Shown one piece after another: positions 3,429 to 11,647 of a stretch of 64,000 nucleotides of DNA (position 1 is the stretch's first letter; every line of letters begins with the position of its first letter). The notes under the pieces are model-generated. The model was not told where the DNA came from. It did not search any database and saw nothing but the letters and a program-made list of their open reading frames with translations. The translations under genes and the position numbers were made by a program. The DNA is from a virus. The stretch covers positions 46,968 to 110,967 of the IMG/VR virus record IMGVR_UViG_3300011113_000784; one strand, given 5' to 3'.

Positions 3429-4622
3429 ATGCCTCGCCGTATTGATTCTGACCATAAAGACTTCAGAGATGTAGTCAGTGGCAGAATTAGAAAAAATCTA
3501 AAAAAGTTTATCAAGAGTGGCGAAATATTTCGCCACCGTGGTAAAAATGGCAAAGTATCAATAAAGATTCCTGCAATTGATATCCCTCACTTTCTTCACG
3601 GCAAGAACCCTAATGGGGTAGGTCGTGGAGAAGGACAAGAAGGAGATACTGTTGGCAAGGACAAGGGGCAAGGTCAAGGACAAGGAAACGGCGCTGGTCA
3701 GGATGAAAGCGAAGGCGTAATTGTTCAGCTAGATATGGAGGACATCCTTCACTTCATGAAGGATGAATTGATGCTTCCTAATCTCAAACCTAAGCAACAA
3801 GCCAACCTTGAAGATGTAAAAATTAAGTATAATAATATCTCTCTAGTTGGTCCAGAATCACTTAGGCATACTCGTCGCACAATGTTAACTGCGATGAAGC
3901 GCCTTTGCGGTACTGGCGAAATCAATAATTTATATGAAATTCCCGGCATTAAAGATAAAGTCAAAATGATCAATCCGATTAATTCGGATAAGAGATATCG
4001 TCAATATAAAGAGATTAGATTTCCTTCCAGCAATGCTGTTGTTATTTTTGCTCGTGATGCCAGTGGATCAATGGATGATCGTAAAGTGGCAGTTGTTTCT
4101 GATATGGCTTATTGGATTGATGTTTATATTAGGAATTTCTATGAACGAGTTGAGAGGCTTTATGTTTGGCACGATGTAGCTGCCCATGAAGTTGATGCAA
4201 AAGATTTTTATCGAATCAGAAATGGTGGTGGCACTACTTGTTCTACTGCTTTAGAATTAGTTGCCAAACAATTTGAAAACAGATTTCCTCCTAAAAATTG
4301 GAATATTTATTTCTTTTATTTCACTGATGGTGAAAATTACGATAATGACAACGATGTTTTTACGACTTTGTTAAAGAAAGAGTTTCCTCAAAATATTGTT
4401 AATCTTGTTTCTATAACTCAAATTGGTGCTTATTCTTACAAAAACAGTGTTGCTGAGGTAGTTGAAAAAGAAATTGTTGAAGGTGGCTTAGATGATAATG
4501 TAATTGTTACAGAAATTCCATTTGATGCAATTAACAATGAAGAAAAAAGAAATGAAGCTATATTAAAAGCAATAAAAGATATATTGGGCAACCCGTTTAA
4601 AAGCGCCAATGAGGTTTTCTAA
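3429..4622 (+). CDS. yeaH: YeaH/YhbH (DUF444) VWA-type protein
   Basis: Gly-rich linker, LPNLKPK, DASGSM and TDGEN MIDAS motifs, GGT..S; directly after prkA. Confidence 0.92.
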   Translation: MPRRIDSDHKDFRDVVSGRIRKNLKKFIKSGEIFRHRGKNGKVSIKIPAIDIPHFLHGKNPNGVGRGEGQEGDTVGKDKGQGQGQGNGAGQDESEGVIVQLDMEDILHFMKDELMLPNLKPKQQANLEDVKIKYNNISLVGPESLRHTRRTMLTAMKRLCGTGEINNLYEIPGIKDKVKMINPINSDKRYRQYKEIRFPSSNAVVIFARDASGSMDDRKVAVVSDMAYWIDVYIRNFYERVERLYVWHDVAAHEVDAKDFYRIRNGGGTTCSTALELVAKQFENRFPPKNWNIYFFYFTDGENYDNDNDVFTTLLKKEFPQNIVNLVSITQIGAYSYKNSVAEVVEKEIVEGGLDDNVIVTEIPFDAINNEEKRNEAILKAIKDILGNPFKSANEVF

Positions 4623-6217
4623 TGTCAGACAAATTCTTATTTGGTTCGCCTGTTCTTTTCGGATCTGCTACTACTCCCGGCGTACCTATTCCTGAAGAAC
4701 TCAACAAACATATTCCAACTATTTTTCAAGCTTGTAAAGATTTTGGACTAGATTTTTATCCAACAATTGTCCAGATGCTTTCTCATGACGAAATGAGTGA
4801 AGTTGCAAGTTATGGTGGATTTGCATCGAGATATCCACATTGGAAGTTTGGTGCTGAATATGAAGAGATGCAAAGAGGTTATCTTCACGGAAATCATAGA
4901 ATATATGAAATGGTGGTAAATTGTAATCCGGCTTATCTATATTGCCTGAATTCGAATACATTGCTTGACAATATTACAGTAATTGCTCATGCGCTTGGTC
5001 ATGTTCATTTCTTTAAGAATAATATTCATTTTTCTAGAACAAATACAAATGCACATAACGAACTGGCAAATAACGGTTCTAATGTAAGAAAGTATATGTC
5101 TCGTTATGGTAGAGAAACTGTAACAGAATTTATGGATCATTTGTTCCGAATTGAAACTCTTGTTGATCCAATGAATATCTGGAAAGAAAGAAAAGCTAAA
5201 GAAGTTGTCATTAGGGACAAAAAAGACTATGTATTTCCTAAAAGGATTAAGACAAATCAAGATTATATGGAAAACTGGATTAATACTCCAGAGTTTATAG
5301 AAGCTCAAAATAAGAAAATTGAAGAACAAGAGATCATGAGAGATCTCAATGCATTCGCTTCTCCTGAATCAGATATATTTGGATATATCAAAGACAATGC
5401 GCCATTCAAACCTTGGCAGCGTGATATTGCTGAGATTTTGTACAATGAAGCTATTTATTTTAGTCCACAAGGCAAAACCAAGGTAACTAATGAAGGTTTT
5501 GCTAGTTATTGCGATTATCATCTTATCGCTAAACAAGGATACGCTTCTTTAGGACAAGATAATGAGGATGGGGGTATTGTTGAGTACTCTATTCATAAAG
5601 CTGGTGTATTGGGCGGCAAATATAGCATGAATCCATACAAGCTTGGATTTATGTTATTAATGGATATCGAAGAAAGATGGAACAAGGGTAGATTTGGATC
5701 AGATTATGCCAATTGCACTAATCCAATTGAAAGGGAAAATTGGGATCTTAATCTTGGACTTGGTAAGGAAAAAGTTTTTGAGGTTTGCAAGAACTACGAT
5801 GATTATCAATTCATAAATGAATTTTTTACCAAGGAGTTCTGTGAAAAGAATGAGTTCTTTGAGTACAAGCGTTATCCGACTGGTGAAATAAAGTTGGAAA
5901 GCAGAGATTACAAAAAGATCAAAAGAGAGTTGTTGCGTAAGCATATTAATCGTGGTTTGCCAAATATTAAGCTTGTTGAGCCTAGATTTAAAGGCAACAT
6001 GTTTTTCATGGAGCATAAGTGGCAAGGTGTAGAACTTTATAAACCTTATGCTTACGAAGTGATGAAGTCTATTTGTTATCTTGTGAGACAACCTGTTGTA
6101 TTGCAAACCAAGAATCATAATGGGGATGAAGCATTTTATTATTGCCAAGATTTGAACGGGGATTATGCTGCGGCTGATCCTAAATCTTTAACAAGAGATC
6201 AATTGAATAAACTATGA
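4622..6217 (+). CDS. spoVR: SpoVR/YcgB-family protein
   Basis: RYPHWKFG, IYEMVVN, AHALGHVHFFKNN, YFSPQ..TK..NEGFASY, NPYKLG. Confidence 0.93.
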   Translation: MSDKFLFGSPVLFGSATTPGVPIPEELNKHIPTIFQACKDFGLDFYPTIVQMLSHDEMSEVASYGGFASRYPHWKFGAEYEEMQRGYLHGNHRIYEMVVNCNPAYLYCLNSNTLLDNITVIAHALGHVHFFKNNIHFSRTNTNAHNELANNGSNVRKYMSRYGRETVTEFMDHLFRIETLVDPMNIWKERKAKEVVIRDKKDYVFPKRIKTNQDYMENWINTPEFIEAQNKKIEEQEIMRDLNAFASPESDIFGYIKDNAPFKPWQRDIAEILYNEAIYFSPQGKTKVTNEGFASYCDYHLIAKQGYASLGQDNEDGGIVEYSIHKAGVLGGKYSMNPYKLGFMLLMDIEERWNKGRFGSDYANCTNPIERENWDLNLGLGKEKVFEVCKNYDDYQFINEFFTKEFCEKNEFFEYKRYPTGEIKLESRDYKKIKRELLRKHINRGLPNIKLVEPRFKGNMFFMEHKWQGVELYKPYAYEVMKSICYLVRQPVVLQTKNHNGDEAFYYCQDLNGDYAAADPKSLTRDQLNKL

Positions 6218-7412: not shown

Positions 7413-7487
7413 TATCGAATACTAACCCTCTTTCTAACGGTGACGATCATGGAAGAATTGAACAAGGAAGGAGGGCAGCACAAGCAG

Positions 7488-8833
7488 ATGAAGATTGTTG
7501 GTTATGAACATCTTCATCTGCACTAGGTCAAACAGAATACTCTGTCCTCGACGGTTTTGGTAGCGTTCAGGATTATATTGATAGGTGGTCACCGCATGGC
7601 GATTATCTCTGTGTAACAGATCATGGATTAATGGGTGCTATACCAAGCTTAATCACAAAAACAGAACAAGCAGAAAAGAAATTAAAAAGTTTGTACGGGT
7701 GCGAATTGTATGTGAACCCAATTCACAATGAACCAACTGAGACTGAAGAAGCTAGAGACAAATTTATAAAAAACTTGTCACCACAAGAATTTGAAGATTT
7801 CAAAGTCTCTAGCCACATATTAGCAATTGCCGTAACCAATAAAGGTTATGAAAACCTAACAAAATTGTGTAGTCTTGGCTGGAGCCAAGGATTTTATCGT
7901 AAGCCTAGAGTCAATCACAAAGTTCTTCAACAATATAAAGAAGGCATTGTTTTCACTTCTTGTTGTTGTGCTTCTGAAGCAGCAAGAGCTTTGCGTGTAC
8001 ATGGCAAAGAAGTTGCTGAAGCGACTATTCTTAAATACAAGCAAATGTTTGGAGATAACTTCTATCTTGAAATGATGCTTCTCGATTTTGAGTATCAACA
8101 TGAGTATGATCAATTTTTAGTTGAGATGCACATCAAACATCAAATTCCAATGATCATTACCAATGATGTTCATTACGCATATCAAGAGGATAGCAAGTAT
8201 CAAACATTAATGATGTTGGTTAATACCAAAAGGACATTGGCTGAGATTGAGAAGTTAAAAGCTGAGAATGCTGATGTGTTTGAATTGCAAGATAGAAATT
8301 TGTGGATGAAAACAGAGGAAGAATTGAATCAAAAGTGGGCTGAAAAGTATTCCGATGTAATTCCTTTAGAAATTTATGAACAAGCTAAAATGAATACTGT
8401 TAAGATATGCAGAATGGCATCTGGCTTAAAATTAGATAGAAGTGTAAAACTACCAAGGCTCAATGATGATGAAGGCGTTTTAAAAGATTTGGTTTTAAGA
8501 GGAATGACATATAGGGGAATATCAAAATCTAATCGTATTTACACAAAGCGTATTGCAGAAGAATTAGATCTTATTTTTAGGAAACAGTTTGCTAGTTACT
8601 TTCTCATAGTTAAGAGTTTTACAGATGAAGCTAGAAGAAAGTGTCAAGAGATTACTGGGTTGGATGGCGTTTATGCGGTTGGACCCGGTAGAGGGTCTGG
8701 TGCTGGTTCTCTTGTGTTATATCTTCTTGGCGTTACTGATGTAGACCCAATAAAGCATGAACTTCTGTTCTCACGATTCTTATCGGAGAACAGAGGTTCA
8801 CAAGCAGTATTAAAATTTAGTCAAGGTGACTGA
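7488..8833 (+). CDS. dnaE: DNA polymerase III alpha, N-terminal half (PHP domain to RGS/FxRFL), interrupted by 8 nt at 7524-7531
   Basis: ATG 7488 MKIVGYEHLHLH-TAG, then in the -1 frame TEYSVLDG...TDHG...GCELY...TNDVHY...GPGRGSGAGSLV..LLGVT.VDP..H.LLFSRFL; the ORF track start at 7631 misses the first PHP motifs. Confidence 0.9.
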
Positions 8834-9110
8834 CTTCATAGTCATCAAAGTTACTTCCTTTAGAGAAGTCAACATTTGGTGTTCCAAGATCGCCAAAAGG
8901 TTTGTCAGTATTATAACCTTTTGCACGATATGCTTGGCTCTTTTTGCCTTGTAGTGGGAAGCTATAATGCTTTCCTTTAACGCCAGTATCTTCAGGGGCT
9001 TCTGGTTGGGGGAAAGCATAAGATTTCATGATATCTTGAAGTTTTTTCTGAGAATCGCTAATTTCTAGATCTTTTTTATATTGCTCTAAAGTCTTAATTT
9101 TCTTTGCCAT
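8817..9110 (-). CDS. small hypothetical protein between the dnaE halves; possible internal head protein
   Basis: GAGGTG RBS and TAAATA upstream; N-terminus KTLEQYKKDLE. Confidence 0.65.
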   Translation of the reverse strand: MAKKIKTLEQYKKDLEISDSQKKLQDIMKSYAFPQPEAPEDTGVKGKHYSFPLQGKKSQAYRAKGYNTDKPFGDLGTPNVDFSKGSNFDDYEVSHLD

Positions 9111-9141
9111 GATTCACCTCTACTTTATTTAGATTTTCACA

Positions 9142-9169
9142 TTGATTTTTACCGCTAAATGCTTAAAAT
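9142..9169 (+). promoter_or_regulatory. sigma70-type promoter for dnaE C-half (probably leaderless)
   Basis: TTGATT-16nt-TAAAAT with ATG 7 nt downstream and no RBS. Confidence 0.4.
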
Positions 9170-9175
9170 CATGGT

Positions 9176-11647
9176 ATGAATACCATATCTGTCGAAGATT
9201 TTAATAAAATTATCAACAATCAATTCAAGAAATTTCCTTTTCATGATGATCCACGATATCAATTCAGGCTTAGATATGAGCTTTTAGAAATAGAAACACA
9301 AAATTGTTGTGATTATTTTATAGATTTGGTCAAACAAAAGAAAAAATTTCTTAATGAAAACAATTTACTTGTCCCAGTGTTACTGGGAATTTGCAATGAA
9401 TTCAATATTGATGAAATGCCCAAAACTAAAACAAATGAATTCCCCGATGTTGATATCGATTTCTTGGCAGATGTTCGTGATTATCTAAAAAACGAATATG
9501 CTCCCAATCAATATAAAGCTGAAAATACATGCTCTATTGGTACTTACGGCAGATATGCTTTAAAGAGCGCCATGATTGATATGGCAAGAATCTATGGATA
9601 TGACCGACAAGAAGTTTTAAATATTACAACAAATTTGAGAATGAAAGACGAAGATGGAGATGAATTGACATATGAAGAAGCTTTAGAAATGTATCCTGAG
9701 TTGAAATCTTATATGGACAAGTATCCAGAATTAGCATTAGCTGTTCAAAAGCTTATTCACAGAGTACGCAATACCGGCAAACATGCTGGCGGTGTAATTG
9801 TTGCCAAGGACGAGATTAATAAGTTTGTTCCATTGATGAAAACCACAGGTGGTGACCAGCTTGTATCACAGTTTGTAGAAGGTTTGGCTACACAAGAATT
9901 AGGACCAATAGGTCTGGTAAAATTCGACTTGCTTGTTGTGTCTGCGTTAGAGCAGACGGGTCACGCAGTAAAAATGATAAAGGATAGGCATAATATCAAA
10001 TTAATTTCAGGTGACAATCACGATTGGGACAACACAGATTATTTGAATGACCCCAAGGCTATTGCGAATGCCAACGAAGCAGATTTGATTGGCATATTCC
10101 AATATGATAGCAATGGGATTAGAGAAGTTGTAAAAGCTTCTGGTATTGATAGTTTTGATGACTTGGTTGCGATTGTCAGTTTGTATCGTCCCGGTCCATT
10201 GAATGCAGAAATGGATCAAGTGTTCATCAGAAGAAAAACAGGACAAGAAGAATATACAATCAATCCCGTGCTTGAACCTGTTCTTAAATCAACTTATGGA
10301 ATTATTATCTACCAAGAACAAGTAATGAGGATTCTGAATGTTGTTGGCAAAATCCCTCTGAAAGATTGCGAAACAATCAGAAAGGCTATTTCTAAAAAGA
10401 AGATATCAAGTTTCATCAAGTATAAAGAACAATTCATTGAAAACGGTGTTAATGTTCTTGGAATTTCCAGAGAAGAAGTCGCTGATATATTTCAGAATAT
10501 TGAATTCTTCTCAGCTTATGGTTTTAACTTAAGTCATGCCACCGCTTATACTTACATCAGCAGCCGACAATTATATTTGAAAACTTATTATCCATTAGAA
10601 TTCTTTACTGCTTTGTTGATGTTGGAAGGTAGTGAAGAGAAGAAGCGCATTTATATTACAGATGCTCAAAATCATGGAATTGAAGTTCGGGCAGTTGACC
10701 TAAACACAAGCAAAGCCAATTTCTCGATACAAGATAATGCCATTTACATTGGTTTTGGCAATATTAAAGGTATCGGAATGGATACTGCCAATAAGATTGT
10801 AGCCTTGCAACCGTTTAAAGACATAGATGATTTTCTTCGTCGGTTTGGCACAGACTCTAGTGTTTTGAAAGCACTGATTCCGTTGAAGGTCTTTGGAGAA
10901 GACACAAAGAGAGCTTACAACTATTGGCAAGCTTTTATGGCTAAGAACAAAAAGGTTGTTGACAAAAATAAGAGATCTAATAAGTCTTATCTCGATCTGA
11001 AGAAGACAGTGTTATATCTGTTGCCTGAAAAGTATAGGAATTTGGAATTGTCTGAAGAATTGTTTTCAATTCTTAAATCAATTAATGATTCTGCTGATGT
11101 GAACAAGCTGCATAAGAAATGGGTGAGGATGAATTCTAAAGAAGAAGCAAAGATTGAAATTTCTTATGAAGACTTTGATGATGATGACATTGTCATCGAA
11201 GATAAAGAGTTGCTGCTTGAATTAAATGATATTTGTGTGGCTGAGAGAAAGTATTATGGGTTTCAGTTTACTTGCAGACTAAGAATGCTAAAGATGTACA
11301 GTGAGAACTGTACATTTGACCGTGTTATTAATTCTCATGCCTTGGGTGCGACTAAGCACATGGTTCAAATTGAAATATTGGATGTCAATAAAAGATATTC
11401 AAAATCTGGTAAGCCCTATTGCCAGTTAGTTGCTATGGATAGTAATTTCAGAATTGAGAGGATTAATGTGTGGGAAGATGATTACGCTATATTCAAACAT
11501 TTGCTTGAGGTTAACAAATGTTTGTCAATGCAGGTCAAACCACCTTCTAATGGATTTTCTACTTATAGCCTAAATTCTCCTCCTAAAAACAGGAGATATT
11601 TACTTCCATCATCAGAGATGGATTTCAGAATTGTTTTAATGGACTAG
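9176..11647 (+). CDS. dnaE: DNA polymerase III alpha, C-terminal half (catalytic palm, fingers, HhH, OB-like)
   Basis: FPDVDIDF, GKHAGG, GLVKFDLL, IFQY, LYRPGP, YQEQVM, YGFNLSHA..Y, IKGIG motifs; no intein. Confidence 0.95.
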   Translation: MNTISVEDFNKIINNQFKKFPFHDDPRYQFRLRYELLEIETQNCCDYFIDLVKQKKKFLNENNLLVPVLLGICNEFNIDEMPKTKTNEFPDVDIDFLADVRDYLKNEYAPNQYKAENTCSIGTYGRYALKSAMIDMARIYGYDRQEVLNITTNLRMKDEDGDELTYEEALEMYPELKSYMDKYPELALAVQKLIHRVRNTGKHAGGVIVAKDEINKFVPLMKTTGGDQLVSQFVEGLATQELGPIGLVKFDLLVVSALEQTGHAVKMIKDRHNIKLISGDNHDWDNTDYLNDPKAIANANEADLIGIFQYDSNGIREVVKASGIDSFDDLVAIVSLYRPGPLNAEMDQVFIRRKTGQEEYTINPVLEPVLKSTYGIIIYQEQVMRILNVVGKIPLKDCETIRKAISKKKISSFIKYKEQFIENGVNVLGISREEVADIFQNIEFFSAYGFNLSHATAYTYISSRQLYLKTYYPLEFFTALLMLEGSEEKKRIYITDAQNHGIEVRAVDLNTSKANFSIQDNAIYIGFGNIKGIGMDTANKIVALQPFKDIDDFLRRFGTDSSVLKALIPLKVFGEDTKRAYNYWQAFMAKNKKVVDKNKRSNKSYLDLKKTVLYLLPEKYRNLELSEELFSILKSINDSADVNKLHKKWVRMNSKEEAKIEISYEDFDDDDIVIEDKELLLELNDICVAERKYYGFQFTCRLRMLKMYSENCTFDRVINSHALGATKHMVQIEILDVNKRYSKSGKPYCQLVAMDSNFRIERINVWEDDYAIFKHLLEVNKCLSMQVKPPSNGFSTYSLNSPPKNRRYLLPSSEMDFRIVLMD

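Follow-up and report, generated by a model that had tools for sequence, protein, structure and literature searches.

The window considered here, a stretch of 64,000 nucleotides (nt) from the IMG/VR virus record IMGVR_UViG_3300011113_000784 (bases 46968-110967 of 110,967), carries a dnaE gene for the alpha subunit of DNA polymerase III (Pol III) in which the PHP metal-site motif is broken by an 8-nt insert that begins with the stop codon TAG. The record is 23% complete according to CheckV and is therefore a fragment of a very large phage. By protein, the closest phage in GenBank is an uncultured huge phage of 595 kb with 48% amino-acid identity, so that no cultured relative is at hand, and a megablast search of the GenBank phages with the locus returned no match. 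The source is an uncultured giant freshwater phage.

Two reading frames meet at the break. The leader frame (frame 0; 7449..7523, + strand) reads MEELNKEGGQHKQ-MKIVGYEHLHLH from ATG7449 and has an alternative start at ATG7488, from which the codons ATG7488 AAG ATT GTT GGT TAT GAA CAT CTT CAT CTG CAC encode MKIVGYEHLHLH and are terminated by TAG at 7524-7526, followed by GTCAA and then, from 7532, by ACA GAA TAC TCT GTC CTC GAC GGT. The last codon of the leader, CAC (7521..7523, +), is the proposed take-off codon; it specifies the third His of HLHLH, a PHP metal ligand, and CAY is invariant at this place in all alleles. The coding gap TAGGTCAA occupies 7524..7531 (+), with TAG 7524-7526 as the triplet for the ribosomal A site and CAA 7529-7531 as the proposed landing triplet. 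The N part of dnaE (PHP domain and first part of the Pol III alpha palm; 7532..8833, +) resumes at ACA (Thr) in the +2 frame, encodes TEYSVLDGFG...CVTDHGL in a run of 433 codons and ends with TGA at 8831-8833. This downstream frame opens at 7508, after TGA 7505-7507, and contains no ATG, GTG or TTG ahead of ATG7631. Its product matches the Pfam PHP profile from position 6 on (E 9.5e-28) and leaves just five initial positions of the profile uncovered, which would be expected with the HxH motif in the leader frame, and it also matches the start of the DNA_pol3_alpha profile (E 4.1e-27). When 7524-7531 are omitted the two frames join as MKIVGYEHLHLH-TEYSVLDGFG, which aligns without gaps with MHMNIVGFEHLHLH-SEYSILDGFG of the uninterrupted relative L003. 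An earlier reading of this DNA from the letters alone (hereafter the original prediction) was thus correct in stating that skipping exactly these eight nucleotides restores the DnaE consensus and that no start codon is available in the downstream frame until 7631. One PHP metal site is liganded by both the HxH motif and the LDG Asp, which would accordingly be expected in one chain.

The insert is not peculiar to this record. Two pattern scans, one of viral contigs and one of metagenome contigs, in which the flanks were specified and the insert sequence was left free, recovered approximately 25 further contigs from separate metagenome samples with a 7- or 8-nt insert directly after the third His codon. 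These represent 11 distinct inserts, i.e. eight 8-mers and three 7-mers, with TAG as first codon in 10 of the 11 and TGA in the remaining one (L023/L034). Within IMG/VR the same flanks were interrupted in 11 contigs and uninterrupted in 17. The closest relative found, L002 (88% amino-acid identity), bears an 8-nt insert at the same place (TAGCTGAC, compared with TAGGTCAA in the window), whereas L003, L004 and L008 (75-80%) are uninterrupted. Uninterrupted close relatives had been named in the original prediction as a sign of recent inactivation, and here the outcome was mixed; an interrupted L002 together with uninterrupted L003, L004 and L008 fits a mobile cassette better than it fits inactivation by a recent mutation. 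Whether 7 nt (+1) or 8 nt (+2) long, the inserts restore H-[ST]-[DE]-[FY]-S-x-L-D-G only when skipped whole.

The coding sequence beyond the insert is under strong purifying selection. Downstream open reading frames (ORFs) are intact (433-456 codons) in all insert-bearing alleles for which enough sequence is available. Between the window and L002 the ratio of non-synonymous to synonymous substitution rates (omega) is 0.056 in the dnaE N part, where synonymous sites are saturated (synonymous divergence, dS, 1.77), and 0.05 in the C part; the proportion of non-synonymous differences (pN) lies far below that of synonymous differences (pS) in 8/8 pairs of insert-bearing alleles. Even the 33 codons directly after the gap, which would go untranslated if ATG7631 were the start, keep TEYSxLDG and GDYxCVTDHGL, and a restart downstream of the gap was rejected on the grounds that no start codon exists there and that 7532-7630 shows conservation at the protein level. 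With a single metagenome-assembled contig as the record, there is some room for an assembly or sequencing error, or for a pseudogene made by a recent inactivating mutation. This we consider extremely improbable given the interruption of the same site by diverged inserts in contigs from other samples, the omega of about 0.05 and a 7.5-kb alignment to L002 with no second frame-breaking indel inside a gene. The break is real, on this comparative sequence evidence, and represents neither an assembly artefact nor a decayed gene; the original prediction had argued against decay from the intact flanks, a view borne out by the omega values, the intact downstream ORFs and the recurrent insert. It had also held that reassignment of TAG would not suffice, and this stands: frame 0 meets TAA 30 codons after the TAG and is not DnaE-like, a change of frame is required, and TAG otherwise acts as an ordinary stop codon here, 12 of 73 ORFs ending with it. 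Recoding in some form is very probably needed.

Just upstream of the gap lies a conserved hairpin (7484..7521, +) of 12+3 bp (15 bp), with a 5' arm at 7484-7495 and 7497-7499, a loop at 7500-7506 and a 3' arm at 7507-7509 and 7510-7521, the 3' arm being formed by the His-Leu-His-Leu codons and the first base of the take-off codon. It was found in every insert-bearing allele and in no uninterrupted one. In an alignment of 16 distinct sequences 240/240 cells pair, compared with 35-52% in slid controls, and four compensatory pairs are changed on both sides (19 cells; e.g. ATG...CAT to GTG...CAC). Four sites vary in the HLHL codons across the 16 distinct alleles, all of them synonymously, and these account for all changes in the 3' arm. 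Folding energies of the 38-nt hairpin segment do not overlap between 17 insert alleles (-17.3 to -21.2 kcal/mol) and 13 uninterrupted ones (-1.0 to -8.6 kcal/mol); on 63-nt segments the window reaches -20.5 kcal/mol and insert-bearing alleles overall -19.6 to -26.5 kcal/mol. The minimum free energy (MFE) fold of 7440-7560 also recovers the hairpin, and a search of the window against Rfam gave no match. In comparison with L002, the segment 7458-7526 is the best-conserved 68-nt block (66/68 identical, against a background of 81%), a conservation that we attribute to the hairpin plus coding constraint; recent gene conversion as its sole cause is unlikely, since the block ends exactly at the TAG and the next 5 nt differ at four positions. 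The small TCTG/CAGA hairpin that the original prediction had drawn over the gap did not survive comparison, CAGA being unconserved in relatives and TCTG belonging to the 3' arm of the stronger hairpin at 7484-7521.

Two further readings of this region were discarded. An outer helix of GGAGGGCAG (7468-7476) with CTGTCCTC (7541-7549), which encloses hairpin and gap in the MFE fold, has no partner in L002 and probably arises by chance, and a split Shine-Dalgarno (SD) sequence bridged by the hairpin, as in T4 gene 38, was rejected, there being no conserved start codon after the hairpin. All insert alleles possess an in-frame ATG 20-25 codons before the stop (ATG7449 in the window) and thus have an N-terminal extension of 8-13 residues that the uninterrupted alleles are without, so that the hairpin may lie within a translated leader and not over the true start. 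Translation would start at either ATG7449 or ATG7488.

The end of the insert resembles the codon that precedes it. When matches to the His codon CAY are counted moving 3' from the take-off triplet, the last three nucleotides of the insert form the first triplet with at least 2/3 matches in 13 of 14 variants (landing triplets CAA, GAC, CTT, TAT, AAC, AAT, TAC and CAT); by our own calculation, the chance of this pattern for one unconstrained 8-mer is roughly 0.08. Such a landing rule bears on the possibility that the eight nucleotides are removed or absent at the level of nucleic acid, whether by hairpin-guided RNA micro-excision or editing or in an insert-free DNA subpopulation. With its end 2 nt ahead of the insert, the hairpin might in principle be what a removal activity recognises, but the gap sequences share little beyond the stop codon, the insert is present in >20 independent assemblies, and both the stop codon and the landing rule make sense only for a ribosome. 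To our knowledge, no enzyme excises 7-8 nt from bacterial or phage mRNA. Removal at this level is very unlikely, and no support was found for the micro-excision that the original prediction had offered beside a stop-hop.

Relatives of the window also suggest where the insert came from. In L036 an intact 391-amino-acid (aa) ORF (L036:1528-2700, -) lies directly upstream of dnaE and ends 4 nt before the dnaE ATG. Its product contains a DH...N...N motif, matches PHROG 559 'HNH endonuclease' (3e-22) as well as PHROG 681, and has GenBank phage relatives annotated as HNH or homing endonucleases, although it has no match in Pfam. Ahead of the HNH motif this protein bears three or four tandem Cys-rich modules of ~65 aa each (CxCG...GxRCxxC). 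Homologues occupy the same upstream position in L029, the L012-group and L023/L034, and a remnant is present in L024, giving five lineages with L036, whereas no HNH gene was found upstream of the uninterrupted alleles examined (L003-L008). The gene is absent from the window locus, from L002 and from several others. In the window, 7464..7483 (+), which includes a GGAGG tract, represents a 3'-end remnant of the HNH gene, homology to L036 and L029 setting in at 7464, which falls in the final 20 nt of the HNH ORF of these two.

The L036 allele (insert TAGTTAAC) further delimits the cassette. Its downstream DnaE is 99.5% identical in protein to that of the uninterrupted L003 (dS 0.065), and the first nucleotide difference between the two occurs 158 nt after the gap; in the 36 nt before the gap they differ at seven sites, and further upstream they are unrelated. 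A pair that is near-identical downstream and unrelated upstream places the end of the cassette at the gap, and the 99.5% identity within DnaE-N implies that gain or loss was recent. A tree built on the N part shows interrupted alleles interspersed with uninterrupted ones throughout the family. It is likely that the insert arrived with an HNH homing-endonuclease cassette, whose candidate nuclease is known from sequence, and the nuclease gene would since have been lost from the window. The original prediction had supposed that recoding gates production of the proofreading half of the replicase; self-protection of an HNH homing-endonuclease cassette explains the origin of the insert more simply.

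A cassette of this kind could also have left a tolerated selfish scar that is decoded inefficiently, the phage making do with rare spontaneous hops, with a truncated or HxH-less DnaE or with another polymerase, and the hairpin serving the cassette (e.g. in translation control of dnaE or of the nuclease) and not a hop. The cassette is plainly mobile and patchy, the hairpin covers the possible start codon ATG7488, a second polymerase is possible given that only 23% of the genome is in the record, and low-level unprogrammed stop-hopping is known, at least as cited in bioRxiv 10.1101/2022.08.31.505936. However, the HLHLH and TEYSxLDG codons are under purifying selection at saturated synonymous divergence in many nuclease-free lineages, in which covariation of the hairpin also persists; moreover, a truncated product would have no start codon before 7631, and the segment ahead of it is conserved as protein. 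We regard a tolerated scar as unlikely, though not as negligible.

Ordinary programmed frameshifting would also carry ribosomes past the stop codon, by +1 at CAY-UAG in the 7-nt alleles and by -1 or +2 in the 8-nt alleles, including that of the window. The insert would then be partly translated and two or three residues would be added (HLHLH-LGQ-TEYS in the window; -1/+2 product HLHLHLGQTEYS). Stop codons that occupy the A site classically stimulate +1 shifts, as in prfB (textbook knowledge), the -1 frame is open across the gap, and the +1 reading of L023 gives H-D-H-T-D-F-S, which retains the HxH motif. Against this, one cassette with one hairpin would need two different mechanisms, and tRNA-His is unable to re-pair at -1 (GCA) or at +2 (CUA). 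A -1 shift would lack both an X XXY YYZ heptamer and a downstream structure; the structure lies upstream, and on re-forming it pushes forward, not backward. The features of prfB-type +1 and dnaX-type -1 sites (slippery site with re-pairing, SD or downstream structure) are lacking. The residues that would be added (LGQ, LAD, LVL, LGY, LVN, SY and DH) are unconserved although they would adjoin a metal ligand. A frameshift of either kind is in our estimate a distinctly doubtful explanation.

The best reading of the locus, and in our judgement a probable one, is a minimal hairpin-assisted translational bypass, i.e. a short hop, borne on a homing cassette. The recurrence of a stop-first insert, the co-varying hairpin and the frequently adjacent nuclease gene indicate that ribosomes most likely hop over the gap; recurrence of the insert, purifying selection on both frames, the existence of two insert lengths and a landing triplet resembling the His codon all support a hop. 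Ribosomes would initiate at ATG7449 or ATG7488, read through the hairpin region to CAC 7521-7523 and pause there with UAG in the A site. The peptidyl-tRNA-His would then unpair and the mRNA slide 8 nt forward, until the tRNA re-pairs with CAA 7529-7531, the first triplet to match CAY at two positions, and decoding resumes at ACA 7532; the comparative data favour this scheme of CAC take-off and near-cognate CAA landing, which was put forward in the original prediction. The predicted product is a single polypeptide with an intact PHP motif, HLHLH-TEYSVLDG, and with IVGYEHLHLHTEYSVLDGFGSVQDYIDR as junction peptide. The slide would probably be driven by the 15-bp hairpin, whose 3' arm would be inside the ribosome at take-off with the 5' arm already exposed, so that the hairpin could zip up only if mRNA were pulled forward and out on the exit side. 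As to its origin, an HNH gene inserted just upstream would have brought a recoded dnaE 5' end (extension, hairpin and gap) that spoils the cassette's own target site, and the benefit to the cassette would likely be protection of that site, by analogy to MobA.

Several points weigh against a hairpin-driven hop. All of the support is comparative, and the hop, its efficiency, the driver role of the hairpin and the immunity of the target site are inferred from it. The take-off and landing triplets are unmatched (CAC then CAA in the window; AAY, GAC, TAY or CTT in other alleles), most variants matching at 2/3 positions and only L023 having a cognate landing triplet (CAT). L023 is also the exception to the landing rule, for a GAC (2/3 match) at +4 precedes the cognate CAT at +7. 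In L002 and L037 a fully cognate CAC lies two bases further (+10) in the wrong frame, so that landing must be first-come. The landing score was devised post hoc and the variants are related, which makes the landing rule supportive and not decisive. A gap of 8 nt is too short for a take-off stem-loop or an internal SD, both of which are important in T4, and ARAGORN found no tRNA gene in the 111-kb record, so no phage tRNA promoting hopping. The hairpin could serve another purpose, e.g. control of initiation at ATG7488 or coupling to the HNH ORF, and no HNH homologue was found elsewhere in the 111-kb record.

The dnaE gene is interrupted a second time, being split into two genes after FLSENRG and before PDVDIDF (window 8831-9176; L002:4289-6297; L003:4303-6026), and this split is retained out to L006 (47% amino-acid identity). 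The C part (9176..11647, +) comprises the PDVDIDF catalytic motif, the finger domain and the HhH domain. Its first ~85 residues might be taken for a degenerate duplicate of the N-part terminus, but BLASTP did not support this (E 0.37). The split is filled by opposite-strand ORFs, namely a 97-aa ORF (8817..9110, - in the window) found at the same place in L002 and L003, and an additional ORF of 450-550 aa that is present in L002 and L003 but not in the window; none of these ORFs has a family match. Just upstream of the dnaE region, at 4622-6217 of the window, we detected a protein resembling SpoVR (Pfam PF04293, E 1e-96), which is conserved in both L002 and L003.

Known natural cases of programmed bypassing come from T4 gene 60, from its homologues in topoisomerase genes and from the mitochondria of one yeast, and according to a 2022 survey of gene 60 nothing similar had been described for other phages (bioRxiv 10.1101/2022.08.31.505936); our literature search found no paper on a dnaE bypass. 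A hop over the gap, if true, would be a very rare way to read a gene, and the dnaE element would be a much simpler system, with an 8-nt gap, one hairpin and one stop codon. Its natural variants provide a ready mutational series, in which the gap occurs in two lengths and eleven sequences and the hairpin in four sequence types, so that, with so simple an element, the disputed model of exit-side pairing as driver becomes testable in a small reporter. A hairpin-driven hop, if true, would provide the clearest evidence from evolution to date that pairing of exiting mRNA can drive bypassing, and homing endonucleases would be able to enter even invariant active-site codons because they supply the means of decoding across the damage. 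In the output of standard gene callers, replicase genes of this type will wrongly pass for truncated genes or pseudogenes.

In its local geometry the dnaE element recalls the low-level stop-hopping of Escherichia coli, in which 9 nt specify one amino acid (as cited in bioRxiv 10.1101/2022.08.31.505936 and bioRxiv 10.1101/2024.12.09.627546). In both, peptidyl-tRNA would jump a short way forward past a slow stop codon and pair again some few nucleotides downstream, and in neither are long-range signals inside the gap needed. The E. coli hops, as cited there, are unprogrammed and inefficient, use matched codons and stay in frame (+6), whereas the dnaE hop would shift the frame (+7 or +8) over a gap that is fixed in an essential gene and accompanied by a dedicated covarying hairpin and an N-terminal extension. 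The byp elements of Magnusiomyces capitatus mitochondria (cited in bioRxiv 10.1101/2022.08.31.505936) are likewise mobile inserts in essential genes that are skipped by the ribosome and tolerate imperfect matches of take-off and landing; as described in that citation, they differ in being 27-55 nt long, GC-cluster-like and numerous per genome, in having an unassigned sense codon in place of a stop and in having no tie to a homing endonuclease.

One clade of relatives has, 18 nt beyond the first gap, a second element of greater length (L025:6086-6200, +; L024:1862-1980, +; L028:1400-1509, -; L018:3038-3150, +), of which no copy is present in the window. It follows TDFSLL and consists, in this order, of a CTC codon, a TAA or TGA and a hairpin, after which CTT lies in frame with the remainder of dnaE. 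In L025 the stem is a perfect 15 bp (CTCTAAGTGCCCCGC/GCGGGGCACTTAGAG), and its 5' arm contains both CTC and the stop. Insert length totals 46 nt in L025 as against 48 nt in L024 and L028, so that the frame differs between alleles. With its matched Leu codons and take-off stem-loop, this second element looks like a gene-60-type bypass, judging from the sequences.

The closest parallel to the 7-8-nt dnaE gap is T4 gene 60 itself, in which a 50-nt bypass lies within the MobA HNH homing-endonuclease element (bioRxiv 10.1101/2022.08.31.505936, Manning & Atkins) and protects the target site of that element (bioRxiv 10.1101/2022.08.31.505936); a stop codon that follows take-off, a bypass kept although the nuclease is lost, and exit-side pairing as driver have all been described for gene 60 (bioRxiv 10.1101/2022.08.31.505936; bioRxiv 10.1101/2024.12.09.627546). 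As in gene 60, a conserved essential gene of replication type is interrupted at an invariant metal-site motif, an exact skip of a non-coding gap restores frame and consensus, a stop codon (mostly UAG, sometimes UGA) directly follows the take-off codon, and the gap, rich in A and U, contains no premature landing triplets. Further shared features are an added N-terminal extension, an HNH gene directly upstream, a host gene that is also split in two ORFs and a patchy distribution, in which some lineages are nuclease-free but keep the gap. Unlike gene 60, the dnaE gap measures 7-8 nt instead of ~50 and has neither a take-off stem-loop nor a mini-SD, the take-off codon lying at the 3' end of an upstream hairpin; its triplets are near-matched (His CAY to NAY or CAA) and not readable by one tRNA under standard wobble; its 5' hairpin is strictly conserved and covarying, whereas the T4 5' stem-loop is not conserved between clades; and its target is the PHP motif of dnaE and not a topoisomerase. 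Since matched codons and an in-gap take-off stem-loop are both missing and the gene is a different one, we place the dnaE element outside the gene 60 family; by analogy, it would work like gene 60/MobA without being a member of that family. On balance we favour the view that it represents a second, independent phage family of natural bypass, with a 7-8-nt stop-hop gap, a hairpin-powered slide and a two-position landing, spread by HNH nucleases through the dnaE genes of huge freshwater phages.

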